From an uncultured Solirubrobacterales bacterium (GTDB lineage: Bacteria > Actinomycetota > Thermoleophilia > Solirubrobacterales > Solirubrobacteraceae): DNA of 40,000 bases. Position numbers and translations under genes: made by a program. The stretch covers positions 1,405,437 to 1,445,436 of the forward strand of contig CAWFNV010000003.1 of assembly GCA_963817345.1 (NCBI GenBank). Reading direction: 5' to 3'. This document shows positions 6,702-27,552 of this stretch, one piece after another (the stretch's first letter is position 1; every line of letters starts with the position of its first letter). The notes below the pieces were generated by a model that did no database searches, was not told the DNA's origin, and worked only from the letters and a program-made list of their open reading frames with translations.

Positions 6702-7995
6702 ATGACGGCGGTGCGCGAGTGCTGGCGGGCGCTGTGGCTGTCGCGCCTGTTGGTGTGGGCTGCCGGGGTGGGCACGGTGCTGGCATTTGGCTTCGGTCCC
6801 GTGCGCAATGCGTTCAACCCTCCCGGGGTGACGCGGGGGTTTGGCTGGCTCGGCGACCTGCTGGCGGCTCCGGCCGCACGCTGGGACTCGGTCTGGTATC
6901 TCGTGATCGCCCACTACGGCTACCGCCCCGACCTCGGCGCCTACACCTCCTCGCGCACCGCCTTCTTTCCGCTGTATCCGCTTGGCCTGCACGCGCTGTC
7001 AGACCTTGGCCTGCCGGCGGTGTTGGCGGGGGTTTTGTTCTCGCTGCTCGCGTTCGCGGCGGCGCTGTACGGCATCCATCGCCTGACCACGCTGGAGCTG
7101 ACACGTCTCGCGCGCTCGTCGCTCGCCGAGGATCGCGTCGCCGACGCGGCGCGCTTGGCAGTGATGCTCACGGCATTTGCGCCGATGGCGTTCTTTTTCT
7201 CGGCGGTTTACTCGGAGTCGCTGTACCTGGCTCTGTCGGTGGGACTGTTCTGGTGCGCGCGCAATGGGCGCTGGGCATTGGTGGGCATGCTCGGCGCGCT
7301 CGCGTGCGCCACGCGCAGCACCGGGGTGGTGCTCGTACTGCCGGCGCTGATGCTTTACCTGTACGGCCCACGCGAGGATCGACCACCAGATCTGAAGATG
7401 TTGATGGGCAGGCTGCGCCCGTGTTACCGGCTGCGCCGAGATGTTCTTTGGCTGGCGCTGCTGCCGGCGGGACTCGCCGCATATATGGGCTATCTGGCGC
7501 TGTCCGGCGGCGACGCGCTGGCGCCGTTTCACGCCCAGGACGTGTGGGGCAGGCACTTCGCGGGGCCGTACGTGGGCGTGTGGGACGGCGTGAAAGCGGC
7601 GTTTGACGGCGCACGCCAGACTGCTGTCCTTTCAGCGTCATCACGTCTACTTCCCGATTGCCGGGGGCAGTCCGTTCGTGAGCGCTGGGCATAACCTGAT
7701 GCTGCTCGTGTTCCTGTTTGCTGCCGTGCCGCTGCTCGTCGGGGTCCTGCGCATGCTTCCGCTCGCTTACGGTTCCTACGTGATCGCTGCGCTTGCCCTG
7801 CCGCTGTCCTATCCGGTGGCGCCACAGCCGCTGATGTCGTTGCCACGCTTCCTGCTGGTGCTGTTCCCGCTGGTGATCTGGCTCGCGGCGTGGCTGAGCG
7901 AGCATCCGCGCGCCCAGAAACCGGCACTCGTGCTGTCGGCTTCACTGATGGTGTTGTTCGTCGGCCAGTTCGCTACCTGGCATTGGGTGGCCTAG
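6702..7995 (+). CDS. PIG-V/GT-C-type mannosyltransferase-like integral membrane protein; reading frame interrupted (net +1) at about 7620
   Basis: ORF 6615..7694 (alternative start ATG 6615; I prefer ATG 6702, MTAVRECWRALWLSRLL) carries ARWDSVWYLVIAHYGY...AFFPLYPL, typical of the PIG-V mannosyltransferase family. After cag(7617-7619)+a(7620) frame 0 loses GC3 bias. Frame 1 (ORF 7603..7995) continues as LLSFQRHHVYFP...LMLLVFLFAAVPLLVGVL with TM helices and ends at 7995. Confidence 0.6.
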
Positions 7996-8877
7996 ATGGC
8001 TGACCCCATGCCGACGGAGGCGGAGCGGTCCCGCTCGCCGAGCCCCGGATGGCCGCCGTGGACGGCGCCGCTCGCGCTGTTCGGAGGGGTCGTACTGGCT
8101 GCGGTGGGCGCAGTTGTGATTGACATCCCGGCGCTTGTCCTGGGGGTGAAGATCTCGAGCTCGCACACGCCACCTGGGCTGACGATCGCCGACACGGTGG
8201 TACAGGACATCGGCTTCGTGCTCGCGGCTGTGTATTGCGCACGCATCGGTGGACGGGCGGTGCGCTCGTGGCAGTTCGGCCTGCGCCCTCCAGCTGCAGG
8301 CTGGCGGTCTGCCATTGGCATGATCCTGACGCTGCTGGTCGCCTTCATCGTCCTCAGCGTCGTGTGGTCGGGAATCGTGCACCCCGAAAAAGAGAAGACG
8401 CTCGAACAGCTAGGATCCAACGAAGGCGCCGTGCTGCTGGTGCTCAGCGCCGCGTTGACATGCGTGGTGGCGCCTATGTGCGAGGAGTTCCTGTTTCGCG
8501 GCTACATGTTCACGGCGCTGCGCAACTGGAGGGGGACGCTGCCGGCGGCAGTGATCACTGGGCTGGTGTTCGGCGGCGTGCATGCCGAGTCGGCGCCCGT
8601 CCTCGACCTCGTTCCGCTTGCCCTGCTCGGCTTTGGCCTGTGCCTGCTGTACCGCTACACGGGCTCGCTGTATCCGGGCATCGCGGCGCACTCACTGAAC
8701 AACTCAATCGCGTTCGCAAGCCTCGAGGGCTGGGGCTGGCAAACACCCGTGTTGATCGTTGGCGCGCTGACCGGGATCGCTGTCATCGTGCTTGCGTGCA
8801 AGCGCATCGGTTTGATCACGCCCGAGCTATTGCCGCTCATGCCCAAGGCGTACGCCGTCGGCACAGGGACGTCCTAA
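7996..8877 (+). CDS. CPBP (CAAX/Abi) family intramembrane glutamic endopeptidase
   Basis: ORF 7996..8877. It is multi-TM with family motifs CEEFLFRGY (EExxxR), FGGVH (FxxxH) and HSLNN (HxxxN). Confidence 0.8.
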   Translation: MADPMPTEAERSRSPSPGWPPWTAPLALFGGVVLAAVGAVVIDIPALVLGVKISSSHTPPGLTIADTVVQDIGFVLAAVYCARIGGRAVRSWQFGLRPPAAGWRSAIGMILTLLVAFIVLSVVWSGIVHPEKEKTLEQLGSNEGAVLLVLSAALTCVVAPMCEEFLFRGYMFTALRNWRGTLPAAVITGLVFGGVHAESAPVLDLVPLALLGFGLCLLYRYTGSLYPGIAAHSLNNSIAFASLEGWGWQTPVLIVGALTGIAVIVLACKRIGLITPELLPLMPKAYAVGTGTS

Positions 8878-9218
8878 ACCCTGACGCGGATCACGCGCGC
8901 GAGGAAACCGAGAGCGAAGCCGTAGACGATTAGGGTGAGCAGCAGCTTGACGCCGCGGATCGCCCATTGACTGCTCCACCCCGAGGTGATGCTCGAGAAC
9001 GGCGAGGTGAGCTTGTTGGAGGCTTCGTCGATCGTTTTATGCAGGGTGCCCTCATGGGATGAGGTCTTGGATGAGGTCGATCCGCCGGTGAGCTCTTCCT
9101 GCTGGTGAGTGGATGCGCTGCTGGTTTGGTTGACCACGAAGATCGCAAACGAGGCGATCACGATCAAGCAGATAACCACAGAAGCTAGACGCATCAGGCT
9201 AGCGATGAAGGAGAGCAC
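8874..9218 (-). CDS. Small membrane protein of unknown function (two TM helices flanking a Ser/Thr-rich loop)
   Basis: ORF 8874..9218, 114 aa, with an N-terminal helix LASVVICLIVIASFAIFVV and a C-terminal helix LLLTLIVYGFALGFLA. G+C is visibly lower than in the neighbours. No family recognised. Confidence 0.45.
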   Translation of the reverse strand: MLSFIASLMRLASVVICLIVIASFAIFVVNQTSSASTHQQEELTGGSTSSKTSSHEGTLHKTIDEASNKLTSPFSSITSGWSSQWAIRGVKLLLTLIVYGFALGFLARVIRVRV

Positions 9219-9909: not shown

Positions 9910-9981
9910 GCCCTCGTAGTCCAATGGATAAGACGACCGCCTCCTAAGCGGTAGATCCAGGTTCGACTCCCGGCGGGGGCA
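9910..9981 (+). tRNA. tRNA-Arg (anticodon CCU)
   Basis: Manual fold. Acceptor GCCCTCG/CGGGGGC (one G-U pair); D arm GTCC-AATGGATA-AGAC; anticodon stem ACCGC/GCGGT with loop CTCCTAA (anticodon CCT); variable loop AGAT; T arm CCAGG-TTCGACT-CCCGG (one A-C mismatch); discriminator A. CCA is not encoded. It aligns position by position with E. coli argW as I remember it. Confidence 0.85.
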
Positions 9982-9991
9982 CTGCAGCGCG

Positions 9992-10084: not shown

Positions 10085-10260
10085 TTTTTTCTACTTCGTA
10101 TTACCATAGTTACACCAAGTTTTATTTTTATATCGACCCCCCGCCCTTTGCCCAAACACCGCCCGTGGGCCCCAAGTACCCGTTGTGGGCGCCGTCAGGA
10201 CGCCGGCAAGCACCGGACGGGCCTTACGTAACGGACATACGGCGTAGTAGCCTCTCCAGC

Positions 10261-10812
10261 ATGGGAGTGCTCCAAGAGCTGGCGGCTGATCTCGATGTCG
10301 AGGAGCGCACGTTGCGTAGGGCTGCCTCTCAGGGCACCTTGCGAGCCACCCGGATCGGACCGCGGCGGCTACGGCTTGCGTCAGGCGAGCGCGAGTATCT
10401 CCAGGCTCATTGGTCGCTGCTCTCCTGGCTTCGCCGGGCGCTGCGTACCGAGCCTGGCGTTCGTCTGGCCGTCCTCTATGGCTCGCTGGCGCGGGGCGAC
10501 GAGGACGCCGACTCGGATCTCGACCTGCTGTTCTCGTTTGCCGACGATCGTCCCTCGGCGGGCGTCGAGTTGGCTGTCCGCTTGCAACGAGTCAGCGGCC
10601 GTCAGATTGACATAGCCGACCTGCGACGAGTTGAGGTCCGGGCTCCGCTTCTCCTGGACCGGGTCCTTGACGAGGGCCGTGTCCTGGTGGACCGAGATGG
10701 GCAGTGGTGTCTGCTGCGTGAGCGCCACGACGCGATCCGCGCGCGCGCTAGTCGTGATTACCGCCGCCAGATGACCGGTGCAGCCCGCGCGATCGAAGAG
10801 CTGACTCGGTGA
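10261..10812 (+). CDS. HTH plus minimal nucleotidyltransferase (MNT-type) protein, putative antitoxin
   Basis: Within ORF 10165..10812; ATG 10261 (MGVLQELAADL). The N-terminal HTH is EERTLRRAASQGTLRATRIGPRRLRL. The NTase signature is LYGSLARGDEDADSDLDLL (GS-x9-DxD). Confidence 0.7.
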   Translation: MGVLQELAADLDVEERTLRRAASQGTLRATRIGPRRLRLASGEREYLQAHWSLLSWLRRALRTEPGVRLAVLYGSLARGDEDADSDLDLLFSFADDRPSAGVELAVRLQRVSGRQIDIADLRRVEVRAPLLLDRVLDEGRVLVDRDGQWCLLRERHDAIRARASRDYRRQMTGAARAIEELTR

Positions 10813-11342
10813 ACGACTCGGCGCCTTCGAGGATCGAACCTCACATTCTCAAGGCCGAGCAGGCTCGGCTGGCGCGCTTCTTCCAGAGCATCAACAAGCA
10901 CCGCAAGGCCATCGACCTGGCGATCGAGGAGGACTTCGGCGGCGCGCTCGACCCGGTCGAATGGAGAAGCGCCTTCGAGTCCTCAGAGCCCCGCGATGCG
11001 AACCGCACAATGGTCGTCACTGGCGATCACTCGGCCATGCTCAACGCCTATGTCGAGATCCTCAAGGCCAGCGCCGGCGCCCGTCTGATTGGCCTACTCC
11101 CGCACCGTCGCCCACACGCCAGCCAAGTATTCGATGCGCTTGTCGCAGACGGTGGGCTGGGCAAAGAGCAGGCGGCGCTGCTGGACGAGCTCTACGTCCT
11201 CGAGGGCCGACTGGAGCACGCCTCACCGGACGTCGATGCCGAGGAGGTTCGCGCTGCTGTCGAGCGACTCCGCCAAGCACTCCCGGATTTGATCGAGAGC
11301 ACCCACACCTGGCTGCGCCGCCACGGCGTCGAGCTTCGGTAA
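10809..11342 (+). CDS. Cognate partner of the NTase, possible HEPN-like toxin (assignment weak)
   Basis: ORF 10809..11342. Its GTG start overlaps the upstream stop (GTGA), indicating coupling. The protein is helical, and the only HEPN-like element is ARLIGLLPH (R-x6-H). No family firmly recognised. Confidence 0.4.
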   Translation: MNDSAPSRIEPHILKAEQARLARFFQSINKHRKAIDLAIEEDFGGALDPVEWRSAFESSEPRDANRTMVVTGDHSAMLNAYVEILKASAGARLIGLLPHRRPHASQVFDALVADGGLGKEQAALLDELYVLEGRLEHASPDVDAEEVRAAVERLRQALPDLIESTHTWLRRHGVELR

Positions 11343-12835: not shown

Positions 12836-12880
12836 CTCGATAGTTCTAGCGTCATGACCACAGTTCGCGATCTGTCCGCA

Positions 12881-12920
12881 CCATGGGAGACCATGACTGG
12901 CCATGACAGATCATGAACAC
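12881..12920 (+). repeat. Four tandem 10-bp YCATG-phased direct repeats (candidate operator array)
   Basis: ccatgggaga / ccatgactgg / ccatgacaga / tcatgaacac occupy exactly 12881, 12891, 12901 and 12911. A fifth tcatgacca sits at 12852. The array lies between the divergent MFS and HTH-queC genes. Confidence 0.6.
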
Positions 12921-12962
12921 CAAGAGAAGGACAGCTTTGCTACACAGGAGGAAGGCGTGGAT

Positions 12963-13856
12963 ATGCTCTCAGTGCGGCGTGTCGCTAAGCACCTCGGCAT
13001 CTCGGAAAGCGGCGTCTATCGTCTCATAGACGCCGGTGACCTGTCCAAGCTGAAGGTGGGCACTCGTACCGTGTTTGAGCCAGCGGAGGTTGAGCGATAT
13101 ATCGCTCGATGTCGCGCGGCGTCTCGCACTGAGCAAGAAAGCAACTGGTCCGGGGAAGGACGCAGGGCCGTCGTCTTGCTGTCAGGCGGCCTCGACTCGG
13201 CCACCGTCTTGGCAATCGCTCAGAACCAGGGCTACGAGGCATACGCGATCTCCTTCCGCTACGGCCAGCGTCATGCAATCGAGCTTGATGCGGCCCGTGC
13301 GGTCGCGAGAGCCGCTGGGATACAGCCTCCTGTAGTCACAGAGATCAACCTTGGGATCTTTGGTGGATCTGCCCTTACGGCAGATATCGTGGTGCCGAAG
13401 CACGACTCAGTCGCAGAACTCGGAGAGGACATCCCATCGACCTACGTGCCGGCTCGAAACACGATCTTCCTCTCCTGCGCTTTCGGATACGCAGAGACCC
13501 TTGAGGCCGACGACATTTTTATCGGCGTAAACGCACTCGACTACAGCGGCTACCCCGACTGTCGCCCTGAGTACATCAATCACATCGAAGGCACTTTCAA
13601 TGTTGCTTCCAAGCGCACCGTGGAAGGCCATAGACTCCGTATCCACACTCCGCTGATCGACATCACAAAGGGCGAGACCGTCCGTCGCGGAATCGAGCTC
13701 GGGGTCGACTACTCACTCACGCGCTCCTGCTATGACCCAGCGCTTGCGGGCGAGGCATGCGGGCATTGCGACTCTTGCCTGCTGAGACTGCGTGCGTTCG
13801 CCGAAAATGACCTTGAGGACCCGATCTCCTACCAAGGCCAGAAGCTGGCGGCCTAG
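12963..13856 (+). CDS. queC: 7-cyano-7-deazaguanine (preQ0) synthase fused to an N-terminal excisionase/MerR-type HTH domain
   Basis: ORF 12903..13856. I prefer ATG 12963, which is preceded by aggaggaagg and avoids the CATG repeat array. The HTH is [47 protein letters not shown]. The QueC core has [11 protein letters not shown] (PP-loop), YVPARNTIF and the Zn motif [10 protein letters not shown]. Confidence 0.85.
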
Positions 13857-13858
13857 TT

Positions 13859-14620
13859 GTGCTCGCTTCGGCACCATGCTTGAGCGACTCGAGCGCTTTG
13901 GACGATGCGACTTTCCCCGTGGTCGAGATCTTTGGCCCCACAGTTCAGGGAGAGGGTCCAGAGGCGGGTCGTCCGGCGTACTTCGTGCGCTTCGGTGGGT
14001 GCGACTATCGCTGTAGTTGGTGTGACTCGATGCACGCAGTCGAGCCAGGCCTTGTGCGTGCTGCAGAGCGTCTCAGCGCGACCGATGTGATCGCTCGGCT
14101 GCGGGATAGACCCTCGGGCCCCGATCTCGTGGTGCTCAGCGGAGGCAATCCGGCTCTATTGGAGCTAGGTCAACTCGTAGAAGAGTTGCAGCGCGAGGGC
14201 AGGCAGGTCGCCGTCGAGACTCAAGGGAGCGTGTGGCGGGACTGGCTTGGCCGTGTAGACAGTCTTGTCATTTCGCCAAAGGGCCCGTCGTCGGGCATGG
14301 TCAACAGCAAGCATGCCAAGCAATTCCGAGCTTTTATGGGCAAGGCGTGTTCTGCCGGAGCATCTCTAGCACTGAAGATCGTCGTTTTTGATGGCGAAGA
14401 TCTCGACTGGGCTCGGCAGACCGCTGGCGATTACTCCGAGATCCCTTTGTATCTGTCCGCAGGCACCGACGTGGACCTCTCCGAGGAGCAGACCATCAAT
14501 CGTCTTCGTGACCGCTACCGCTGGCTGTGCGAAGCAGTCTCCACTAATGCTGATCTTCGCCATGCACGAGTGCTCCCACAGCTGCACGTGATCGCCTGGG
14601 GAACGGCACTGGGGGTCTGA
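13859..14620 (+). CDS. queE: 7-carboxy-7-deazaguanine synthase (radical SAM)
   Basis: ORF 13859..14620 (GTG start). It has [11 protein letters not shown] and the radical-SAM cluster [10 protein letters not shown]. It begins 3 nt after the queC stop. Confidence 0.85.
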
Positions 14621-14621
14621 C

Positions 14622-14990
14622 ATGGAGCTCTACAAGGAATTCACTTTCGAGGCGGCTCACCGTCTACCCAATGTTGCACCAGAGCACAAGTGCGCCCGCC
14701 TGCACGGTCACTCCTACCGTGTGATCATTCACATAAGCGGAGAGGTCGACCCGCAAACCGGCATGGTCATGGACTTTGCCGACATCAAGGCCGCATTCAA
14801 GCCGATCGTTGCAGGGCAACTGGATCACTACTACTTGAATGAGGTAGAGGGCCTAGAGAATCCAACCTCGGAGAACCTCGCACAGTGGATCTGGCAAAGG
14901 CTTCAGCCTCTCTTGCCGCTGCTTTCAGCGGTGGAGGTCAGGGAGACGTGTTCCTCGGGGGTGCTCTACAAGGGCGAGCGGGAGCGATGA
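14622..14990 (+). CDS. queD: 6-carboxy-5,6,7,8-tetrahydropterin synthase
   Basis: 122-aa ORF: [10 protein letters not shown]...[11 protein letters not shown]...[10 protein letters not shown]. This is the typical QueD/PTPS His-triad layout. Confidence 0.9.
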
Positions 14991-15808
14991 GCCTGCTGGC
15001 AGATAAGACGCTTCCAGATGTCCAGGGCGGCAGAGACGAACGTGGCGTGGCGCTCAACGATGTCGGGATCTCGGGCCTGCGCTACCCAATCACCGCCGAA
15101 TGTGCTGATGGCAGCAGCCAACAGACAATCTGCGAGGCGCAACTCACCGTCGCATTGGCCGCTCAGGCTCGGGGCACCCACATGAGCCGATTCGTCGAGG
15201 CTTTGCATGAGCAACACGACTCGCATGCAGTTTCCCCGGCAAGCACCCTGAGGATGGCACGAGAACTCGCGAGTCGTCTCGATACTGACGAAGCCGCAAT
15301 CAATCTCAGCTTTCCCTTGTTCATCCAGCGCAAGGCTCCGGTCACCGAGCATACGGCCCTACTGGGTATCGACTGCACGCTCAGCGCGCGTGCCGGGAAC
15401 TGCGGAGTGAGCCTACAGATTGGTGCCCGTGTCCCAGTCACGAGTCTCTGTCCCTGCTCCAAGGAGATCGCTGACTACAGCGCCCATTCTCAGCGCGGTT
15501 ACGTGACGATAGACGCGCTGGATGGCTGCTGGGCTAAGGGAGGCGACGGGATATGGCCAGAGGAGTTGCTTACCGTCTGTGATCAGGCAGCCTCGGCTCC
15601 GATCTATCCACTACTCAAGCGTCCCGATGAGCGTCACGTGACGATGCTTGCTTACGACCGTCCCGCGTTTGTCGAGGACCTGGCGCGCGAAGTCGCGACC
15701 GCACTACAAGCAGACGAGCGGATTGCGGGCTTTGACCTCGAGGTCGTCAACCAAGAGAGCATCCATGATCATCAAGCACTGGCACGATTGCAATGGAGGC
15801 GCTCGTGA
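14987..15808 (+). CDS. folE2: GTP cyclohydrolase I type 2 (GCYH-IB, FolE2)
   Basis: Within ORF 14885..15808. ATG 14987 overlaps the queD stop (ATGA). Motifs ARGTHMSRF and [21 protein letters not shown] are characteristic of FolE2/MptA. Confidence 0.8.
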
Positions 15809-16480
15809 GTCGGGAGATCCTCATTGTGAGTTCGTGTACGGCTACTAAGGTCCAGACGGCCGATGGGCAACCGCGTTGGGCCGAGTCGCTGTATGCCGGC
15901 CAGCAGCATGTGCGCCTTATGCGAGGTATAGATCGATACCGGCAGGCTGGAAAGCCAGCAGGTGAGTTGAGCTTTCGCATCCTGTCTGCATTTCATGGGC
16001 TCGTTCGGCCACGTAAGTCGGTCTCCTCGTACGATCACTCGTTTTCCGGTCTACCGACAGCTTGCTATCCAGCGCCAAGGCCGCGAAAAGAACGTACCCC
16101 AAGACATCCGCAAGCTCCTAAACAAGCCATTTGACCTTGGGGTGCTGATGCTTGGGGATCCGTACTTGAGAGCCTGCGACCTTGACTGCGACGTCAAACT
16201 CGGTGGTCCGACGATCGTATTCTGCTCCCCGAAAGTCGCGAGGTGGCTCCCCGATCTTGACGGGTCGCGGCTCGTACAGTTGACCAATCACGAGGCACGC
16301 CGATTCTCCTGTGGGCTGATAGCGCTCAAGGGCGAGCTAGGCGGCCGTATCCTTATCGCGCTCTCCCAGCAGTCGGCGATTCTGAGCACGTTGATAAGCC
16401 CCGACATTGATTTGCTGGATTGGCTGGAGGCAATGCCACCGACCTCCTTGCCCGAACATCAACTGCTAGCAGCCGGGTAA
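15805..16480 (+). CDS. YaaA/DUF328-like protein, candidate DpdC; reading frame interrupted (net +1) within about 16042-16060
   Basis: ORFs 15793..16134 (frame 1) and 15995..16480 (frame 2) read as one protein. GTG 15805 overlaps the folE2 stop (GTGA). ILIVSSCTATK, ILSAFHGLVRPRKSVSSYDHSF and SCGLIALKGELGGRILI parallel the E. coli YaaA blocks [29 protein letters not shown] and YAKKARGLMSRFII, which I quote from memory. Removing one T from the T4 run at 16042-16045 restores ...YDHSFPVYRQLAIQ.... Confidence 0.5.
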
Positions 16481-17742
16481 TGGACTTCTACTTCCCTGAT
16501 AGTCAGGATCAAATTGATCCCAGATATTGCTTTGACGTTGAGGAGCATCCACCTCACCACGTTCGCCAGCGCGATGACTACTACGCGCACGAGGCGCACT
16601 TTCAGCCGCCATACACAGGCATGCTCGTATCAAAGACAATGGTCGATGGCTATCAAGACACAGGACGCTACACGCCTGCTCAACGTCATCGGCTCTACCG
16701 CCTAGGCGTCCATGACTTCTTTCGTCTGCCAGTCGGGATGAACACACTGGGTGACTGTGGCGCATTCTCATATGTCGCCGAGCAAGATCCACCCATCACC
16801 GTCGATGAAGTCATCGACTTCTACGAGGGTTGCGGGTTCGATCTCGGTATCTCCGTCGACCACGTGATTCTCGACTACCGTGCAGACGCCGAGGAGTCTG
16901 GCGAGATCGACCCTCGATGGATAGAACGACAGGAGACCACCCTTCGATGCGCTGGCGAGTTTCTAGAGCGCCACGCTGAACGTGGTTGCAGCTTTACACC
17001 TGTCGGGGCAGCCCAGGGCTGGAGTCCTCAGTCCTATGCTTACTGTGTAGAGGAGCTCCAGCGCCTTGGCTACAAGCGGATTGCCCTAGGGGGAATGGTC
17101 CCGCTAAAGACCATGCAAATCATGGCTTGCCTCAAGGCTGTTCACAAGGTGCGTAACAAGAATACGCAGTTCCACCTACTTGGCGTAACCAGGACCGAGT
17201 ATGTAGTGAACTTCGCAGCTTTTGGGGTCACTAGCTTTGATTCGACCTCTCCGTTTCGCCAAGCGTTCAAGGACGACAAGGACAACTACTGGACGAAGGA
17301 CCACAAGTACGTGGCGCTTCGTATTCCCCCAAGCGAAGGCAATGCCAAACTTCAAGCTCTTATCCGTGCTGGACAACTCGACCAACGCGAGGTACGCAGC
17401 CTCGAGGTCGCGTGTCTTACCGCCTTGCGGGCATATGATCGTGGCGACAGGACGCTAATGGGAGCAATCACCGCTCTTCGGGACTATGAGCAACTGGTTA
17501 GTCCAGAAAAGGACCACACACAGGCCTACCAGCGAATGCTCGAGGATGCTCCCTGGCAGCGCTGCCCATGTGCGGTTTGTAAAACCGACGGCATTGAGGT
17601 AGCCATTTTCAGGGGAACTGAGCGCAACAAGCGTCGCGGCTTTCACAACCTGTGGGTCTTTAATCAGACATTGCAAGGATACATCGCCGGAGGCGAGTCA
17701 GTTAATGCTATGACAGAGGAGATAATCGGTGAACGCGTCTGA
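16480..17742 (+). CDS. dpdA: DpdA-type TGT-family transglycosylase (predicted DNA-guanine to preQ0 exchange)
   Basis: Within ORF 16420..17742. ATG 16480 overlaps the upstream TAA (TAATG). The TIM-barrel TGT-like core includes GISVDHV, ALGGMVP and TSFDSTSP. The Zn motif is CPCAVCK, followed by FRGTERNKRRGFHN, as I remember for the DpdA/TgtA5 family. Confidence 0.75.
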   Translation: MDFYFPDSQDQIDPRYCFDVEEHPPHHVRQRDDYYAHEAHFQPPYTGMLVSKTMVDGYQDTGRYTPAQRHRLYRLGVHDFFRLPVGMNTLGDCGAFSYVAEQDPPITVDEVIDFYEGCGFDLGISVDHVILDYRADAEESGEIDPRWIERQETTLRCAGEFLERHAERGCSFTPVGAAQGWSPQSYAYCVEELQRLGYKRIALGGMVPLKTMQIMACLKAVHKVRNKNTQFHLLGVTRTEYVVNFAAFGVTSFDSTSPFRQAFKDDKDNYWTKDHKYVALRIPPSEGNAKLQALIRAGQLDQREVRSLEVACLTALRAYDRGDRTLMGAITALRDYEQLVSPEKDHTQAYQRMLEDAPWQRCPCAVCKTDGIEVAIFRGTERNKRRGFHNLWVFNQTLQGYIAGGESVNAMTEEIIGERV

Positions 17743-18871
17743 GTTGCGTCTGCCGGCACTTGAGGTTCGGCAAGGTGATCGGCGCCTGTATCAGTTCGCA
17801 TTGGACGGCAAGCAATTGGCCGATGTAACCACAGTGTCGCGGATCAATCGTAACGACGCTGGTCACATTGGCGGGTACCAGCGCCCCGAGGCCCTCAAGC
17901 ACGTCAAGGCTATACGCACCTACCTAGAGAGCCCAGCGGCCCTGATGGCAAATGCTCTAGTGGTTGCATTTGACACACGGGTCCGCTTTGAGCCCGCAGG
18001 CAGACGTTCCCCCAAGGCCTACTCAACGATCGGGACGCTGATCCTACCCGTGGTGCAAGGCGCGGCCGACGAGGACAAGCTGGGCTGGGTTGTAGATGGC
18101 CAGCAGCGGTCCGCTGCATTGCGTGACGCTGACCTTGATCGATTTCCCGTGCCAGTAGTTGCCTTCATCGCCGATGATCTCCGAGAGCAGCGAGCCCAGT
18201 TCATCCTCGTCAACAACACCAAGCCGTTGCCAAAGGGGCTGATTCACGAGCTGCTGCCGTCTACAGACGGCGAGTTGCCCGCCGCACTTGCGCGCAAGCG
18301 CTACCCGGCGAAGCTTCTGGAACTGCTCAACTATCTCCCCGGTTCACCGATGGAGCGCGCTATTCGCACTCCCACGATGCCGGAGGGGCGAATCAAGGAC
18401 AACTCAGTATTGAAGATGCTGGAGTGCTCGATCAGCGATGGTGCGCTCTACCGCTTTCGAGATCCCGAGACCGGAGAAGGCGACACGAGCAAGATGATCG
18501 AGACACTCTGCAACTTCTGGACCGCTGTCAGAGAAACGTGGCCAGACGCGTGGGATTTGTCGCCTCGCAAGTCGCGCCTCATACACGGCGTGGGCATCAG
18601 CGCGCTTGGCTTCATCATGGACGACATCACCGAACGGCGATCGAGACGACAGGCCGTCCCAAGCACCGAGACCTACAAGGAAGACCTACAGTACTTGGAT
18701 TCCGTCTGCGCCTGGACCGAGGGCTATTGGGACCTTGGCCTCGGGCAAAAGCGTCGATGGGATGGACTACAAAACACCCCCAAGGACATCGCTCTACTTG
18801 CCGACTTCTTGGTTCGCCACTACCGCGCTTGTGCGGATGGGGCGGAGCGTACCAAGCAAGAAGCTGCATAA
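17729..18871 (+). CDS. dpdB: DGQHR-domain ParB-like protein (DpdB-type), DGQQR variant
   Basis: ORF 17729..18871 (GTG start, 14-nt overlap with dpdA). It has YQRPEALKHVKAIRTYL, WVVDGQQRSAAL and VVAFIADDLREQRAQFILVNNTKPLPKGL, which is the DndB/DGQHR QxFxxxN block. Confidence 0.75.
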   Translation: MNASELRLPALEVRQGDRRLYQFALDGKQLADVTTVSRINRNDAGHIGGYQRPEALKHVKAIRTYLESPAALMANALVVAFDTRVRFEPAGRRSPKAYSTIGTLILPVVQGAADEDKLGWVVDGQQRSAALRDADLDRFPVPVVAFIADDLREQRAQFILVNNTKPLPKGLIHELLPSTDGELPAALARKRYPAKLLELLNYLPGSPMERAIRTPTMPEGRIKDNSVLKMLECSISDGALYRFRDPETGEGDTSKMIETLCNFWTAVRETWPDAWDLSPRKSRLIHGVGISALGFIMDDITERRSRRQAVPSTETYKEDLQYLDSVCAWTEGYWDLGLGQKRRWDGLQNTPKDIALLADFLVRHYRACADGAERTKQEAA

Positions 18872-19147: not shown

Positions 19148-20008
19148 CTATTCCACGTTCAGCCCAGCCTTTTGGACGAGGTAGTGGTACGCGGCATCGC
19201 GTGTCTGGCGCGTGCTGCTCAGGCTCCAACCGTTTGGTTTGCCGGTCTGGTCGAACTGCTGGATCAGGATCTTGCCATGCCAGTCCGGGTTGCCTTCGAC
19301 GAGGTTTCCATCCTCGTCGTAGTGGTCGCGCGCCATCAGCGTCACGGTGACGCTCTTACCCTCACGCCTGGTCTTTACGTTGCCTGCCAACTTGGCGAGT
19401 GCATCCTTCCACTCGTTCTCGGAGCGCCAGTCCGTGCCGCTCATCGCGTACTTCTGCCAGAGCTCAAACGCAAGCCTGAATATCGGGAAGTACATGATGT
19501 TGGACATCGCGAAGGATCTCTCGCGAAGCAACTGCCGTGACTTACCCGATGCGGTTGGCTTGAACTCGGGGTAGAGCGAGGCCCACTCGGTGTAGAAGTG
19601 TGAGAAGAAGTTGACCAAGTCGGCGTATTTGGCCTTGTCTTTCTGTACCTCGAGGAGCTGCTTCTGGAACGGCTTGATCGCAGAGTCTAGGGTCGCGAGC
19701 GTAGTGAGCTTTCGCGAAGCCTTTGCGATCGTCGACGCGCGGATCTCGATCTCCTCTCGGTCGAAGATCGGACATTGTTTGATCAACGCCATGACGAACT
19801 TCCTCGACGCCGTCTTGTTCGGGTGCATGTCGATCGCCGCACCCACAGTGGGCCGCTTGCCCTCGACGTTGTACTCGTCAAACAAGCGTCCCTCGAACAT
19901 CGGTGTGATGTTGAAAATCGTCACGAACATGCAGGCGTTTTCTTCATCGAAGGGGTCGAACTTAGCGAGCAGCTTCAGAAGCAAGAGCGCGTTGAACGGC
20001 CTGACCAT
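19148..20008 (-). CDS. C-terminal portion of a second DndB/DGQHR-like protein
   Basis: ORF 19148..20008. VTIFNITPMFEGRLFDEYNVEGKRPTVGAAIDM matches the DndB-type block (xxF...QxFxDxN...kPt) also seen in dpdB here. A long helical C-terminal region follows. Confidence 0.6.
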   Translation of the reverse strand: MVRPFNALLLLKLLAKFDPFDEENACMFVTIFNITPMFEGRLFDEYNVEGKRPTVGAAIDMHPNKTASRKFVMALIKQCPIFDREEIEIRASTIAKASRKLTTLATLDSAIKPFQKQLLEVQKDKAKYADLVNFFSHFYTEWASLYPEFKPTASGKSRQLLRERSFAMSNIMYFPIFRLAFELWQKYAMSGTDWRSENEWKDALAKLAGNVKTRREGKSVTVTLMARDHYDEDGNLVEGNPDWHGKILIQQFDQTGKPNGWSLSSTRQTRDAAYHYLVQKAGLNVE

Positions 20009-20507
20009 CGGGCGCGATCTCCACCTCGTCAGGGATCTTGGTCGTGTCGTCCTTCCACTCGTTGAGGAGGTAGTGCAGGTAGTGGCGGTGGGCGCTGTCG
20101 GGGATCGTGAGCGTGGAGTGCACAGTGAGCCTGCGCTTCGCAGCGTCGTAGGTGATCTCCTGTCTACCGTTCTTGCGAGCGTTCCAGGTGATGTCAGGGT
20201 TGAAGAACTCGTGGCTCTCTTCAGGGTCTTTGTTGGAGCTGTCGAGGCCTAGTAGGAACTTTGCCGCCATCGACGCAGCACGCTTGGGGTCGATGTCGAG
20301 TTCGACGTTCGTGACGTCCAGTAGCGTCTTCTCGTCGAACGGCTCCTTGGCACCACGCTGGTACTTTGGGGCGTACTTCAGGTTGCCGTCGATCAAGCCT
20401 TGGGCTAGATCACCGGAGGAGATCTTTCCCTTGTAGATCGGCCCGACGCCTGGCCGGCAGATGCGGTCAACGTCCTCGATAACAATGTTCTTGACAAACT
20501 TAGGCAT
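19962..20507 (-). CDS. N-terminal ParB-fold portion of the second DndB/DGQHR-like protein (DSAHR variant)
   Basis: Within ORF 19962..20621. ATG 20507 is preceded by aggaga. YKGKISSGDLAQGLIDGNLKYAPKYQRG...KRAASMAAKFL...LTIPDSAHRHYLHYL follows the DndB/ParB N-terminal domain layout. It overlaps the next ORF by 47 nt in a frame offset equivalent to +1 nt. Confidence 0.6.
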   Translation of the reverse strand: MPKFVKNIVIEDVDRICRPGVGPIYKGKISSGDLAQGLIDGNLKYAPKYQRGAKEPFDEKTLLDVTNVELDIDPKRAASMAAKFLLGLDSSNKDPEESHEFFNPDITWNARKNGRQEITYDAAKRRLTVHSTLTIPDSAHRHYLHYLLNEWKDDTTKIPDEVEIAPDGQAVQRALASEAAR

Positions 20508-20536
20508 GTGGTATCTCCTGGTGAATTGGTTGTCGG

Positions 20537-21001
20537 TTATCCGGCGATCCGGGCAAGCATCGGCGGACCAGACCGCCCCGTCGCGAGTTGATAGCGGCGC
20601 GACAGTTGCGCAAAGCCCCAAACGTCGATGCGCTGTTGGTGGCGACTGATACGGTTATGCGCTGCCGCGACACGCTCGGCGACGCGCCGCTCGATGACCT
20701 CAGCGGACAATCCCTCGCGAAGTGCCCCGCGCCGGATCTCCGCGTCGTTGATAATGAGTATGCCTAGAGCTGGGCTGATCTCGGCGAGCGTGTCGATGCT
20801 CCCTCGGAGGGCCTTTGGCCCCTCGCTGACCGCGACCTCAAGGGCGACCGCAGGGACCTCCGGCAGTGCGTACCCGTCACCGGGCAGCAGCCACACGCCG
20901 TCGGTGGGCAGCTCCCGTGACCACATCAGGCGTGTCCTGTAGCCGAGCGCCTTGCCGATCTCCAAGAACATGTATTGCGCGTCAGCGTGTCCGGGTCGCA
21001 C
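20537..21001 (-). CDS. Hypothetical protein with a restriction-endonuclease-like motif pattern
   Basis: ORF 20537..21001, 154 aa. HADAQYMFLEIGKALGYRT...TDGVWLL...PAVALEVAVSEGPKALRGSIDTLAEI resembles the small H..E..G / D.vW / aFEVe..t nuclease-like module I remember attached to R-M and defence proteins. This is not a firm family call. Confidence 0.35.
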   Translation of the reverse strand: MRPGHADAQYMFLEIGKALGYRTRLMWSRELPTDGVWLLPGDGYALPEVPAVALEVAVSEGPKALRGSIDTLAEISPALGILIINDAEIRRGALREGLSAEVIERRVAERVAAAHNRISRHQQRIDVWGFAQLSRRYQLATGRSGPPMLARIAG

Positions 21002-21261: not shown

Positions 21262-21699
21262 ATGGGTAAGCGTGACGCACAATCTGTGACGCTGGCGCTG
21301 ATCTCGCTGGACGACGCCCGTGATGCACTGGCTAGCGGCAGCCAGGACGCGGCGATACGCGCCATGGAGGAAGCTCACCAGACGCTCGAGGGGATCAGAC
21401 ATGCCGCTGGCGTACCGGTCGCGCGTGCCGCGCGACGGCTCGGCGTGTCTGTGCCAACCGTGCGCTCATGGATAGAGCGTGGCGCGCTGCGCGCGATCAA
21501 GGGCTCGAGCCCCGTGGAGATTCAACCGGAGAGTCTGCGAAGCGTGAGCCGGGCGCTAGACGAGCTGCGTGAGCGCGGCCAGGACCGCGAGTGGCTCCAG
21601 GCGCTCGTCGACTATCTCGATGACCGCGAGGCACGCCAAAGCCCCGCACTCAAAGAGGGCCTACAGCAGCTCAAGCGCGGGGAACTCGAACCGGCCTGA
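21262..21699 (+). CDS. Excisionase/MerR-type HTH protein, antitoxin-like
   Basis: ORF 21262..21699. The HTH is VPVARAARRLGVSVPTVRSWIERGALRAIKG. Its stop overlaps the next start (TGATG). Confidence 0.55.
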   Translation: MGKRDAQSVTLALISLDDARDALASGSQDAAIRAMEEAHQTLEGIRHAAGVPVARAARRLGVSVPTVRSWIERGALRAIKGSSPVEIQPESLRSVSRALDELRERGQDREWLQALVDYLDDREARQSPALKEGLQQLKRGELEPA

Positions 21700-22070
21700 T
21701 GGCCTTCGAAGTCCTCCGCACACCGCAGGTGCGCGACGCGGTGGCGCAGCAAATGAGCCGAACCGAGCGAGCCAGCTACGAGGCGGCCCGCGACGAGCTC
21801 GGCGGACGCGGATGCGTCGCCGGCGGCTACAAGCTCGCCGCGACCGACGGAGGTGACTATCCGCTGTGCGCCCGCCACCTCGCAAACGCGTGGCGCATGT
21901 ACACCGCATACCCAGATGACGCGCGCGTTGTGATCGTTGCCCTCGACCAGCTAGGCGGTGCGCTGCTTGGCGCGATCGCGCAAGGCCTAAAAGGAGTGTC
22001 TCACCAGGGCGCGCCGCCGCTGGCCTGCAGCTCATTGCTCGGCACGCGGAACATGTTGTCGGCTCGCTGA
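21699..22070 (+). CDS. RelE/ParE-like toxin candidate
   Basis: ORF 21699..22070. GGYKLAATDGGDYPLCARHLANAWRMYTAYPDDARVVIVALD follows the RelE/ParE pattern kl.g....r.r.g.yRi.Y...d..v.v.i. The C-terminal about 35 aa are uninformative. Confidence 0.4.
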   Translation: MAFEVLRTPQVRDAVAQQMSRTERASYEAARDELGGRGCVAGGYKLAATDGGDYPLCARHLANAWRMYTAYPDDARVVIVALDQLGGALLGAIAQGLKGVSHQGAPPLACSSLLGTRNMLSAR

Positions 22071-24522: not shown

Positions 24523-27500
24523 GTGCCGAGTGCCGCCGAAGCCACTTCTACGGCGGCTCTGTCTCGAAGTCCAGAGCCCTTGATGGCCGAGTCCACTCCA
24601 GTGGCCCTCGCGGCCGCGCCTACGCCCACTTCCGCCGAAATTGCTCGCGCGGAGAAGTTCGTGCGCGATCGCTTCCTACACGAGGGCGAGGATCCCGCCG
24701 TTGCGCTGGGCTCTGGTTCCCCGCGCAGGCGCGCGCTGGAGCAGGCGCTGGCGGAGCTGGACAGCGGTGCCAAGTACCCATCGACTGCTTGGCGGCGGGA
24801 CTTCTCGCTGCTGCTGGGGCTGGAGCGGCTGCTGTCTGAGGACGAGCCAAAGCTGGCGGACGGCACTGTGCTCTCAGCACACCAGGTGGACGCCCTGTCA
24901 GGAACGCTGACAGCGCTGCTTGCTGAGGCTCAGCGCACGTCCTGGAACGGTGACGGTCGCGCTGCTGCCACCACGGCCTCGCCTGAGCTGCTGGCGTCCG
25001 CGGCGATCCTCGGCCCGGACGATGAGCCACCGGCGGACTCTGCAAGTCTCGCCAACGGGAGTGCACATGGTGCTGATTCGCGCGCGGACCCCGACTCGGC
25101 AGATGACGCCTATGAGGCTGACGAGGAGGACGTTGACGAGGACGACGAGGAGGAGTCCGAGGACGAGGACGACGACGAGCTCGGCCCGGTCCAGCGGGCG
25201 GCCCCCGATGAGGACGATGAGGACGAGGAGGAGGACGAGCTCGAGGAGGAGGACGACGAGGTCCTGGAGGAGGAGGCCGAAGAGGAGCTTCAGGGCGACT
25301 CCGAGGAGGAGCCTCGCGACTGGGTCGATGAGGAGGAGGATGAGGAGGAGTCGCTCGCCGAGCAGCCCGAGGACCCAAATGCGGCGAAGCGGTTCTGGTT
25401 CGAGCACGCGACCGGCGCAGGCAAGACAGTCGCCGCGCTTGGATTCGTAGAGGCGTCGCAGACCGGTGGGATCCTGATCCTCACGCACCGGCGCAACCTC
25501 GTTGACCAATTCCATGGCGAGCTGCGCGCGCGGGGGTATGCAAAGCGCATCTCGAAGGCGCTGCTGAAAGGCGAGGACTCGGTCAAAGGGGGTGGGCGGG
25601 GGGGTGGGTGGGGCCCTGTAACTGTTGAGACCTACCAATGGTTCGTGCGCAACGCGGGCAAGATCTCGAGCGCCTACACGATCGTCATCTGCGACGAGGC
25701 GCACACCGCGCTGGGTGAGAAGACGAGCGGCGCGATCCGCGAATGGACGGGGCCGATCTTCATCGGCATGACCGCCACGGGCGCGCTGATCGCCCGCCAC
25801 GTCACCGACCTGTTCCCCACCCAGACCTCGCGCTTCGATCTCGCCCAGGCCGCCCGGCGCGGCGTGATTGCGCCGCTACGCTGCGTGCGCATTTCACCTG
25901 GTGTGGGCGTGCGCACGATCGCCAAGGTGCCCCTGCGCCGTGGCGAGGTGGACACCGAGTTCGATCAGGACGAGCTGGCGAAACTTCTCGACCAGGACCC
26001 ATTCAACATGGCGGCCGCGAACCTGTATAAGACCCGCTTCAACGGCGTGCCGGGGGTCGTGTATGCGGCAGGCGTGCGCCACGCGTACAACCTCGCCGAG
26101 GCGTTTCGCGCCGAAGGACTGAAGGCGCAGGCCGTTTCCGGCGAGACGCCCAAGCGTGAGCTCGCGGAGATCCTCGCGCGCTACGAGCGCGGCGACATCG
26201 ACGTGCTGATCAACGCACAGCTGCTGGCCGAGGGCTGGAACAGCCCGCGAGCAACCGTCTGTGTCCACCTCGCGCCGACGGCGTCAAAACGCATCTACCA
26301 GCAGCGCGTCGGGCGCGTCACCCGCCGGCACCCTGGCAAGGAGGCGGGGCTGGTTGTCGACTTCGTGCACCCGGCCACCAAGAACGACGACCCGGTCGTG
26401 ACGCTGCACTCGTTGCTCGACCGCGACGTGTACAGGGGCGGGGCAATCGTCGTCGGGCCCATTCGCCGCGGACGCGGCCGGCGGATGCGCGTGGAGCGCC
26501 GTGTGCTGCCGGTGTGTGTGGAGGAGGAGCGGCGGTTCGCTGTGTTCGAGCGCGAGCTGTGGCGGATCGCGGTCGAGCATCTCGACTACGGCGAGCAGCA
26601 CCTGTGGGCGGCGCTCGCTGGCGCGCGCGTGACCCCCAACGGCTGGCGCAGGGCACGGGCGATGCTGCACTTTGATCGGGCCGGCGAGCTCAAGAGCCGG
26701 TTCTTGATCACTGCGGTGGAAAGAAATCCGAACGCGCAGCTGCGACTGCGCGCTCTGACCGACATCGCTGCGGCGAAGGACCCGGATGCGTTTGACACGG
26801 CGATCGACATCATCGGCGGCTGGCCGCGCGAGGAGCGCAGAGAGGCATCGAAGATCATGCTGCGCGCGATGGTGGAGCGGCGCATCGGCCGTCGTGACCA
26901 GGCCAACGCTTGGATCTGGCGCCTGGCCGAGTACACGCGTGAGATCCACGAGGAGTACGCAGTGCAGCGCTGGCCTGAGACCAAGCGGCTGCTCGGCCTG
27001 CTGGTGAACTCTTCGGGAGGCGCGCACGCCCGCAACGCCAGACGACTGATCCACGCTGCGCGCAAGCAGGACCGGCGGCTGGCGGCTGCGCTGCTAGCGG
27101 CCGCGCTCGCACACACACCCGAGGCCGAGGAGGCCCTGCGCGGTGCGCGCACGCGCATGGCGCGCAAGCCCCCGGCGCTGGCTCGCGAGCTGCTGCGCAA
27201 CTTCCCCAAGCGCCGTGCCCGCAACAACCGGCGCAGGCGCAAAGGCAGCGCCAAGGGTGGCGCCGGGGACAATATGGAGGGGGTGGCGCAGACGGCGGCC
27301 GCGGCGACGGGTACCGATCGTCGAGACGTAGACACGGACGTGGCCACTCCGAAGTCCGCGGGCAGGCGTAGAGGTCGGGGGAGCAAACGCGGCAAGCAGG
27401 CCCAGGAGCCGAACGACGCAGTTCTGGACGAGGCGCTGACGAGCGAGGCGATGGCGTCTGCGAGCACGAACGGCAGCGGGTTGGCGCCGGCGGAAGAGGG

Positions 27501-27552
27501 CAAGCTGGACCGCGACGTCGCTGAGGCGCTGGATCACGCGCAGAAGCAGTGA
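24523..27552 (+). CDS. Large SF2 (ResIII/DEAH-type) helicase with an acidic insert and a basic C-terminal tail
   Basis: ORF 24523..27552 (GTG; alternative ATG 24583). Motifs: LSAHQVDAL, Walker A HATGAGKT, DEAH box VICDEAHTA, GMTATG, and helicase-C motifs LLAEGWNSP and QQRVGRVTR. An acidic tract of about 100 aa separates HQVDAL from Walker A. Confidence 0.8.
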   Translation: MPSAAEATSTAALSRSPEPLMAESTPVALAAAPTPTSAEIARAEKFVRDRFLHEGEDPAVALGSGSPRRRALEQALAELDSGAKYPSTAWRRDFSLLLGLERLLSEDEPKLADGTVLSAHQVDALSGTLTALLAEAQRTSWNGDGRAAATTASPELLASAAILGPDDEPPADSASLANGSAHGADSRADPDSADDAYEADEEDVDEDDEEESEDEDDDELGPVQRAAPDEDDEDEEEDELEEEDDEVLEEEAEEELQGDSEEEPRDWVDEEEDEEESLAEQPEDPNAAKRFWFEHATGAGKTVAALGFVEASQTGGILILTHRRNLVDQFHGELRARGYAKRISKALLKGEDSVKGGGRGGGWGPVTVETYQWFVRNAGKISSAYTIVICDEAHTALGEKTSGAIREWTGPIFIGMTATGALIARHVTDLFPTQTSRFDLAQAARRGVIAPLRCVRISPGVGVRTIAKVPLRRGEVDTEFDQDELAKLLDQDPFNMAAANLYKTRFNGVPGVVYAAGVRHAYNLAEAFRAEGLKAQAVSGETPKRELAEILARYERGDIDVLINAQLLAEGWNSPRATVCVHLAPTASKRIYQQRVGRVTRRHPGKEAGLVVDFVHPATKNDDPVVTLHSLLDRDVYRGGAIVVGPIRRGRGRRMRVERRVLPVCVEEERRFAVFERELWRIAVEHLDYGEQHLWAALAGARVTPNGWRRARAMLHFDRAGELKSRFLITAVERNPNAQLRLRALTDIAAAKDPDAFDTAIDIIGGWPREERREASKIMLRAMVERRIGRRDQANAWIWRLAEYTREIHEEYAVQRWPETKRLLGLLVNSSGGAHARNARRLIHAARKQDRRLAAALLAAALAHTPEAEEALRGARTRMARKPPALARELLRNFPKRRARNNRRRRKGSAKGGAGDNMEGVAQTAAAATGTDRRDVDTDVATPKSAGRRRGRGSKRGKQAQEPNDAVLDEALTSEAMASASTNGSGLAPAEEGKLDRDVAEALDHAQKQ
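25084..25377 (+). repeat. GAG/GAC-rich low-complexity coding tract (poly-Asp/Glu)
   Basis: Nearly uninterrupted gag/gac/gaa codons encoding DSADDAYEADEEDVDEDDEEESEDEDDDE...DEDDEDEEEDELEEEDDEVLEEEAEEE...DEEEDEEES. Confidence 0.8.

Follow-up and report, generated by a model that had tools for sequence, protein, structure and literature searches.

A small nuclease-like protein and a divergent DndB-family protein as a candidate reader/effector cassette of short 7-deazaguanine DNA-modification islands

Many genomic islands that carry dpdA and dpdB, with or without dpdC, have no dpdD-K genes and are regarded as modification-only, and to our knowledge it is not known how the canonical DpdD-K proteins discriminate 7-deazaguanine. 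An island of this kind in an uncultured Solirubrobacterales bacterium raises the question of whether such islands have a restriction arm of another type. The window we analysed is a 40,000-nucleotide (nt) stretch of that genome (assembly GCA_963817345.1, contig CAWFNV010000003.1, positions 1,405,437 to 1,445,436), and beside its dpdB gene, at 19148-21001, lies a minus-strand operon for which a preliminary description, made from the letters alone, had proposed a nuclease-like and a DndB-like product. We find a conserved two-gene cassette linked to dpd genes, and we tentatively read it as a compact restriction or effector module that would read the 7-deazaguanine mark. No description of such a pairing, of a small nuclease-like protein with a DndB-like one, was found in the full-text literature searched, in agreement with the earlier view that it was new. 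The cassette has the following features:

20537-21001, minus strand: gene 1, open reading frame (ORF) for a 154-amino-acid (aa) protein with a PD-(D/E)xK-like predicted fold (AlphaFold2 model)
19148-20507, minus strand: gene 2, a divergent DndB/DGQHR (ParB-fold) family protein of ~452 aa, read as 19962-20507 plus 19148-20008
19990-19997, minus strand: apparent +1 frameshift at a GTYRAC hexamer, with the extra base at 19993-19995

The preliminary description had counted three ORFs here, and all three are in the ORF list of the window (20537-21001, 154 aa; 19962-20621; 19148-20008, 286 aa), but they make up two genes. The fused translation of the two downstream ORFs has 91 homologues, mostly of 440-460 aa and with 100% query coverage, the best at 77-79% identity. 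Because these full-length homologues cover the whole of the fusion, sequence comparison makes the 181-aa and 286-aa ORFs one DndB-family gene of ~452 aa. Its start is the ATG at 20507, behind GGAG and 29 nt downstream of the stop codon of the 154-aa gene, which itself starts with GTG behind AAGGA.

The interruption of the large gene lies within a single hexamer. A metagenome contig (L008, also gathered as L093) that matches the window DNA at 1996 of 2000 positions has an intact 452-aa large gene and reads GTTGACG where the window reads GTTCAACG. Three assemblies of this DNA, each at least 99.8% identical (L008, L009 and L010), are all in frame at the hexamer and read it as GTTGAC, GTCAAC and GTCGAC, respectively, against GTTCAAC in the window. 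Since four near-identical assemblies give four readings of one hexamer, an artefact of base calling or assembly is almost certainly behind the split. Were the frameshift real, the cassette would be a decaying remnant here and its DndB-like gene a pseudogene; the window sequence as given would fit this, as would the public gene call, which likewise splits the gene into 181-aa and 286-aa products, and the dpdC-like gene of the same island, which is out of frame too. We consider such decay very improbable: the gene is in frame in the three other assemblies of this DNA, the disagreement of the four assemblies here is confined to the hexamer, and both ORF halves are undamaged apart from the extra base. 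Moreover, 11 of the 17 difference clusters across the 11.4 kb of island common to the window and L093 fall on GTYRAC or AGCT motifs, which span 2-3% of the alignment columns (binomial about 3e-13, with motifs picked post hoc). The dpdC-like gene breaks at a CAGCT(T)G site that is shifted from the in-frame reading by +1 in the window and by -1 in L093, and since the two err in opposite directions that break is probably an artefact as well.

The 154-aa protein has no match in Pfam, NCBIfam, PADLOC, PHROGs or the PDB sequences, and profiles of both cassette families searched against the PDB sequences gave nothing meaningful. An exhaustive hidden Markov model (HMM) search of 1.8 billion cluster representatives returned 95 members, each representing a cluster at 50% identity, and a Pfam scan of each of 53 members returned sporadic fusion domains only; the protein defines a rare, unannotated nuclease-like family. 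Its AlphaFold2 model is confident (predicted local distance difference test (pLDDT) 87, predicted template-modelling score (pTM) 0.83, 38-sequence alignment) and predicts a core of helix 3-18, strands 22-24, 35-38 and 50-57, helix 62-75 and strand 79-84, in alpha-beta-beta-beta-alpha-beta order. In 53 divergent members D34 is invariant, and G16, G20, W37, P50, E55, K63, G67 and S68 are each at least 90% conserved. The model puts P32-x-D34 at the start of strand 2, E55 in strand 3 and K63 at the opening of helix 2, so that the three residues resemble a PD-(D/E)xK-like site with a displaced lysine. The patterns first taken as reminiscent of such proteins (H..E..G, DGVW and ALEVAVSEGPK) are all present, but E14 of H..E..G is not conserved, whereas D34, E55 and K63 are.

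Structural comparison leans the same way, though below significance. The top Foldseek match in BFVD is annotated 'Restriction endonuclease' (E 0.029, prob 0.98, TMq 0.46), and the further best ones there are a second phage restriction endonuclease, a DUF2726 protein and a PD-(D/E)XK protein; the best PDB matches include RPB5, a SPARDA filament chain and a tRNA-splicing endonuclease chain, which we take to be restriction-endonuclease-like folds. One distant relative carries an N-terminal HARE-HTH domain, the restriction-endonuclease helix-turn-helix (HTH) of Pfam. The suggested nuclease fold thus agrees with the predicted topology, the D/E/K triad and the best Foldseek matches, although no match in either PDB or BFVD reaches E<=0.001, and we think it probable, from the model, that the small protein has a restriction-endonuclease-like fold. 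A distant member of the family (L094 at 2726-4644, and L095) has a C-terminal winged-helix (LexA-like) extension and comes after a conserved 354-aa unknown protein, at a locus whose other products include an integrase, an EVE-domain protein and a type IIG restriction-modification enzyme; this setting suggests that the small domain is also used in other defence-like contexts. Beside the distant member P0198 the partner is a different protein that is not of the DndB type.

The large protein is a divergent relative of DndB. Pfam DndB (PF14072) matches seven members of its family at 30.4-52.4 bits, just above the cutoff of 29.1, which bears out the suggestion that the two downstream ORFs are jointly DndB-like; PADLOC DndB matches the protein as well. 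The PF14072 match is restricted to model positions ~110-338 (mostly 140-300), the helical half, and both TIGR03187 (21.8 bits, cutoff 58.85) and the DndB equivalog TIGR03233 (18.5 bits, cutoff 328) stay below threshold. The PADLOC DpdB models do not match the large protein, BLASTP against DpdB is non-significant and hhalign against a DpdB alignment gives a probability of 0.1. No DUF262, DUF1524 or GmrSD Pfam match was found on the seven members, and no EHxxP motif was seen in six full-length sequences. On these sequence comparisons the large protein is neither DndB proper nor DpdB.

The DGQHR domain is defined by a QR pair, the DGQHR pentapeptide and FxxxN (PMC4619093). In 51 sequences of the large family, at 33-84% identity, Q50-R51, D137/H140/R141 and N213 are invariant; the pentapeptide is replaced by P-D-[ST]-[AG]-H-R-H, a variant of the motif with G and Q swapped out, and the third motif is F209-x-x-x-N213, in the context LFDEYN. 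The DpdB of the window has the series GYQRP, DGQQR and FILVN. The preliminary description had held the large protein to be distinct from DpdB, and the PADLOC models uphold this, but the contrast it drew on YQRG...DSAHRH fails, because these are the counterparts of the GYQRP and DGQQR of DpdB and belong to a shared NTP-binding (nucleoside triphosphate) signature. A confident AlphaFold2 model of P0001, a 79%-identical full-length homologue (pLDDT 91), predicts an N-terminal beta/alpha domain with the motifs, a helical middle and a C-terminal beta domain that ends in an invariant SSTRxTR helix. Its best PDB matches in Foldseek are SspE (E 0.21) and ParB (E 0.42, target TM 0.41), none of them significant. 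A HEPN Rx4-6H motif in the C-terminal SSTRxTRDAAYH was considered and ruled out, as its His is not conserved in P0052 or P0085. A more distant DndB-like family (L019-L024, L052-L092; ~23% identity, 80-90 bits against the family HMM) was seen, among the loci with titles, in Acidobacteriota and one deltaproteobacterial metagenome-assembled genome (MAG); it shares the SSTR and PDxxHR patterns, and neither the small partner nor dpd neighbours were seen beside it, no dedicated look at its context having been made.

Do the two genes belong together, and to dpd islands? Loci were gathered via the contigs of homologues, one GTDB genome scan and one metagenome scan, and were scanned with HMMs of both families and of the dpd and que proteins of the window. 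Homologues of the 154-aa protein number 41 on the same contigs as large-protein homologues, the small family was detected in 19 of 22 clustered loci, and wherever both genes were called (L001, L003-L008) the small one precedes the large one at a distance of -4 to 30 nt. The two thus make up a tight operon, kept in about 19 independent loci. The cassette is linked to dpd or que genes in 16 of 21 informative loci, among them loci of Alphaproteobacteria, Chloroflexota and Solirubrobacterales. It adjoins dpdA and/or dpdB in the window and L008 and in L001, L003, L004, L006, L007, L016, L026, L032, L033, L035, L037, L038, L042 and L043; in L013, queC, queD and dpdB are about 8 kb off. The preliminary description had called for this survey of homologue neighbourhoods for linkage to dpdA and queC, and had held that a lack of association with deazaguanine genes would speak against its proposal; with 16 linked loci, the association is there.

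All-versus-all clustering of every ORF within 9 kb of the cassette in the 22 loci gave dpdA, dpdB, dpdC or dpdC-like genes, queC, queD, queE and folE2 as the only recurrent neighbours. Pfam lists of the island in the window and of every related locus hold no dpdD-K-type gene (the preliminary description had put the cassette where dpdD-K would be expected), and no dnd gene was found in the window or the related loci. Neither cassette protein had a tblastn match in 72,556 plasmids and 50,697 phage genomes. The cassette ORFs of the window converge on the 3' end of dpdB, as earlier described; among the linked loci the orientation to dpd is convergent in 8, divergent in 3 and co-directional downstream of dpdB in 3, and this variable orientation with retained adjacency fits a separable functional module. 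DpdA and DpdB co-diverge (Spearman 0.83, Mantel p 0.0005), while the DndB-like protein does not follow either of them (Spearman -0.05, n=11). The cassette therefore behaves as a module that is recombined with different dpd cores, as would fit a module that reads the chemical product rather than one that docks on the modification enzymes.

In loci of the other cluster type (L003, L004, L006, L007, L033 and L038) a full-length DpdC-family gene is present, and PADLOC confirms DpdC in L003 (1e-77) and L006 (2e-65). A second type of dpd cluster, dpdB-dpdA-dpdB, accompanies the cassette in L003, L004, L007, L033, L037 and L038; where flanks are available, these loci also have full-length dpdC with queC and queD. 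A UvrD-family helicase adjoins the cassette in L003 and L033, the former also with a Cas4-like PD-(D/E)xK protein. Directly upstream of the cassette in L035 (6919-9443) are a DndB-family paralogue (Pfam DndB 1.5e-20) and a RelA/SpoT-domain protein, and a large serine recombinase lies nearby.

What might such a pair do? The operon may be an accessory module of 'short' 7-deazaguanine islands, those with dpdA, dpdB, dpdC or a dpdC-like gene, preQ0 genes and no dpdD-K. The ParB-fold protein would bind DNA and scan for or sense 7-deazaguanine through its QR, D-x-x-H-R and FxxxN NTP-binding motifs, in an NTP-dependent manner, and the small partner would supply a PD-(D/E)xK-type site (D34, E55, K63) and cut DNA without the mark. 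The NTPase and nuclease activities, the nuclease fold, the contact between the two proteins and a discrimination against unmodified rather than modified DNA are what we infer for such a module. We lean towards it by analogy to SspE and GmrSD and because the cassette is linked specifically to short dpd islands that have no dpdD-K. Fusions of ParB/COG1479 domains to HNH, PD-(D/E)xK or HEPN nucleases, tied to systems of DNA modification, are well established as a theme (PMC3632139): SspE, a ParB-fold NTPase and nuclease that senses phosphorothioate, is structurally similar to DpdB (PMC10164549), and GmrSD reads glucosyl-hydroxymethylcytosine (glucosyl-hmC; PMC4619093). In the GATOR-GC survey, dpdB-like genes are those with the most extra copies in dpd islands (n=801), and some islands have no restriction operon (10.1101/2025.02.24.639861). 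More tentatively still, one can picture a minimal two-protein restriction arm that replaces the eight-gene dpdD-K set in 'modification-only' islands of Actinomycetota, Chloroflexota, Alphaproteobacteria and others, with the ParB-fold NTPase licensing the small PD-(D/E)xK nuclease. A two-gene module that recurs beside short islands is a tractable candidate reader/effector, small enough for reconstitution in vitro.

Several observations weigh against this proposal. In five loci whose flanks are long, no dpd gene lies within reach. The pair is present in three of them, L005 (Lolliginicoccus, where an integrase and a terminase fragment are neighbours), L018 (Archangium) and L034; the two Brevundimonas loci, L002 and L012, have only the large gene. 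A nuclease directed against unmodified DNA should not occur without modification, unless dpd genes lie elsewhere in the genome, and these loci thus weaken a model of obligate restriction of unmodified DNA. The small partner was not detected beside the large gene in the Brevundimonas loci L002, L012, L013 and L028 or in L032. The E-x7-K spacing of E55 and K63 differs from the canonical (D/E)xK, the canonical member of the large-protein family, DndB, is a regulator and not an effector, and the co-divergence test has n=11 with identities near saturation. Our confidence is restrained because of the dpd-less loci and the non-canonical spacing of the active site.

The dpd-less loci would fit an autonomous defence system, a type IV-like (modification-dependent) or abortive-infection ParB-nuclease pair that travels in the mobile defence islands that also carry dpd and acts independently of 7-deazaguanine. 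The neighbours at several loci, which include integrases, serine recombinases, a relaxase, a RelA/SpoT protein, a further DndB paralogue and a UvrD-family helicase with best PADLOC matches to GajB, are in keeping with such a role, as is the absence of co-divergence with DpdA or DpdB. The nearest analogue in architecture, GmrSD, depends on modification (PMC4619093), and COG1479/AbiU1 ParB-nuclease proteins are abortive-infection factors (PMC3632139). On the other hand, no defence gene besides dpd recurs beside the pair in the 22 loci, a tie of 16 of 21 loci to one rare system goes far beyond generic co-residence in islands, and a sensor of modified guanine would be self-toxic in a dpd host; we regard autonomy as doubtful. 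The family assignment suggests another role, that of a DndB-style regulator in which the pair tunes dpd/preQ0 transcription or the level of modification, the small protein perhaps as a co-factor. DndB is the only curated family that the large protein matches (PF14072, PADLOC DndB), and DndB tunes phosphorothioation as a negative regulator with ATP-modulated DNA binding, in the account of PMC4507180 that PMC10164549 cites. A control region common to the pair and the dpd operon is conceivable in L007, L026 and L033, where the two diverge, but about half of the linked loci (the window, L001, L035, L037, L038, L042, L043, L006 and L016) place it convergent or downstream, where the pair and the dpd operon have no common promoter. 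The upstream region of the cassette and that of queC share no 9-mer or operator-like repeat, the island already has an HTH fused to QueC, the NCBIfam DndB equivalog is missed by a wide margin (18.5 bits against 328), and an obligate partner with a conserved D/E/K triad would be left unexplained. Regulation is accordingly an unlikely role.

The pair could also serve modification itself, with the large protein as a third DpdB-like NTPase and the small one as a DNA-distorting or nicking helper that alters which targets DpdA chooses or how efficiently it works. DpdA activity requires DpdB, which is a DndB-family ATPase too (PMC10164549), dpd islands commonly have additional dpdB-like copies (n=801; 10.1101/2025.02.24.639861), and several linked loci are already of the dpdB-dpdA-dpdB type. 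We find this quite improbable: the PADLOC DpdB models miss the large protein, profile-profile comparison gives no significant similarity to DpdB, some loci have the large gene, with or without its partner, but no dpd, and the large protein does not co-diverge with DpdA and DpdB while those two track each other tightly. The Salmonella DpdA/DpdB reaction, moreover, needs no nuclease (PMC10164549). The reader/effector module remains the interpretation that we favour, with the reserve stated above.

The cassette sits in an island whose GC content is 56-62% over about 13-21 kb, against 65-73% in the flanks. The other features of the island and its edges are:

9910-9982: tRNA-Arg(CCT) gene, at the left edge of the shared block described below; the island begins directly behind it
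12903-13856, plus strand: HTH-queC, first of the four preQ0 synthesis genes (NCBIfam QueC 4e-59)
13859-14620, plus strand: queE (NCBIfam QueE 3e-74)
14622-14990, plus strand: queD (NCBIfam QueD 1.5e-33)
14885-15808, plus strand: folE2 (Pfam GCHY-1 4e-78)
15793-16471, plus strand: short dpdC-like (DUF6884-like) gene between folE2 and dpdA, in two frames near 16060
16420-17742, plus strand: dpdA, DNA guanine transglycosylase (PADLOC DpdA 1e-169; Pfam TGT)
17729-18871, plus strand: dpdB, ParB-like ATPase partner of DpdA (PADLOC DpdB 4e-143; Pfam DndB 2e-28)
21262-22070, plus strand: HTH protein (145 aa; HTH_23/MerR-type matches) and then an overlapping 123-aa ORF, divergent from the cassette

Within the Dpd modification set of the window DpdA and DpdB are clear, and the dpdC-like gene is weakly DUF6884/DpdC-like: its 225-aa orthologue in L001, which matches the window in two frames by tblastn, has a weak DUF6884 match (4e-4) and a weak PADLOC DpdC match. 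L008 and L009 conserve both the gene of the 145-aa HTH protein and the 123-aa ORF, which form the last part of the shared island; the HTH protein has a weak PADLOC mad1 match, the 123-aa ORF has no family match, and the two could be cassette regulators or island excision factors. The N-terminus of QueC is an excisionase/MerR-type HTH (NCBIfam 'excise' 4e-7), and the short region upstream of queC (12880-12965) holds several CCATGAC/CATGAC repeats, which may be an operator that autoregulates the dpd/preQ0 operon. The left end of the island (10165-11342) holds a nucleotidyltransferase (NTP_transf_2/Polbeta; PADLOC candidate PDC-S09) and then a 177-aa ORF, which together resemble a toxin-antitoxin or defence pair of the MNT/HEPN type. 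A 1009-aa ResIII/DEAD-box helicase (24523-27552), the sole helicase in the window, was considered as DpdE, DpdF or DpdJ and ruled out: it lies 2.5 kb beyond the island in a core region of ~80% identity, its matches to PbeA, DpdF and type IV enzymes are partial and generic, and that to DpdF (1.7e-8, partial) is through the generic helicase C-terminal domain alone. Because it is outside the island and its matches are generic, we do not count it as part of the dpd island.

The island appears to have moved as a unit. From 9938 to about 22050 the window is 99.8% identical to contig_29034 (L008/L093, ENA ERZ25039474), and this ~12-kb block spans the MNT-like nucleotidyltransferase, the 177-aa ORF, a major facilitator superfamily (MFS) transporter, the dpd/preQ0 set, the cassette, the HTH gene and the 123-aa ORF; the chromosome flanking the block in contig_29034 is syntenic with the window flanks and only 78-82% identical to them. 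This difference in identity indicates, from sequence comparison, a recent transfer or recombination of the entire island, cassette included, between related hosts. These are probably Solirubrobacterales, since the MgsA of the window has Solirubrobacteraceae MAGs as its only named relatives, at 75-78% identity. In L093 an extra insert of ~4.7 kb (4380-9172), which encodes a GmrSD type IV enzyme and a RES-domain toxin, lies between the tRNA gene and a 44-bp repeat of the tRNA 3' end, and because of this position tRNA-Arg(CCT) appears to be a hot spot of integration. The right border of the dpd island was searched for a matching att-like repeat, and none turned up.

The differences between assemblies of this island are themselves of interest. 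Nearly all of them occur at GTCGAC/GTYRAC or AGCT/CAGCTG sites (19993-19995, 16060, 11636, 13700-13711, 14580, 14748, 16858, 17055, 18863, 19612, 19734 and 21609) as G-to-A or C-to-T exchanges in either direction or as indels of 1-2 nt, and the differences of L009 and L010 are also on GTCGAC, except for one G/A at 21342. They look like the motif-specific base-calling errors that modified DNA causes in long reads. In Salmonella, DpdA is reported to act at CAG|CTG, on a G that precedes a C (PMC10164549), and on this ground the errors of the AGCT class may mark dPreQ0 or dADG, though ordinary methylation is an equally possible cause. By composition, the window is depleted of CAGCTG (about 2-fold) and of GTCGAC (about 1.4-fold) and enriched in GTTGAC/GTCAAC. 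Such errors suggest that long-read MAGs hold a readable footprint of the modification motif.

How, then, does the cassette compare with systems already described? It resembles DndB in accompanying a DNA-modification gene cluster, and DndB is the sole curated family matched by the large protein, but this protein is ~100 aa longer and comes after a small partner that DndB does not have. With DpdB it shares the superfamily, the islands and the motif order QR, D-x-x-x-R, FxxxN; unlike DpdB, it has an insertion of ~35 residues that alters the motif spacing, and there is no detectable pairwise or profile similarity between the two. Like DpdD-K, the cassette is a module adjoining dpdABC genes in dPreQ0/dADG islands and a candidate for the restriction phenotype. 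DpdD-K, however, comprises about eight proteins, SNF2/DEAD helicases and a PLD nuclease among them (10.1101/2025.02.24.639861), whereas the cassette is non-homologous, consists of two proteins and has neither a helicase nor a PLD domain. The small protein is similar to Mrr-like and other PD-(D/E)xK enzymes in its predicted core, with the Asp at the start of strand 2 (P-T-D-G-V-W) and the Glu in strand 3, and differs from them in that its Lys is at the start of the next helix (E55...K63) and not in an ExK triplet; no sequence-profile match and no significant structural match connects it to them.

The closest parallels are SspE and GmrSD, which join a ParB/Srx-fold NTPase with QR, DGQ(Q/H)R and FxxxN motifs to a nuclease, are genetically tied to the state of DNA modification, and have the NTPase part as sensor (PMC10164549, PMC4619093). 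By analogy, the cassette may work like a split SspE or GmrSD. It is not a member of their family, since no DUF262 or DUF1524 match and no EHxxP motif was seen: where SspE and GmrSD have a fused HNH-type DUF1524 nuclease (EHxxP / D-H-N), the candidate nuclease of the cassette is a separate PD-(D/E)xK-like protein of ~150 aa, and its large protein has D[ST][AG]HR in place of DGQQR, a long helical middle and a C-terminal beta domain with SSTRxTR. The mark it reads would be 7-deazaguanine, rather than phosphorothioate or glucosyl-hmC. On our best reading the cassette extends the known theme of a ParB-fold NTPase joined to a nuclease by a pairing that itself appears undescribed and, if this is correct, carries the ParB-fold sensor from phosphorothioate (SspE) and glucosyl-hmC (GmrSD) to the deazapurines.

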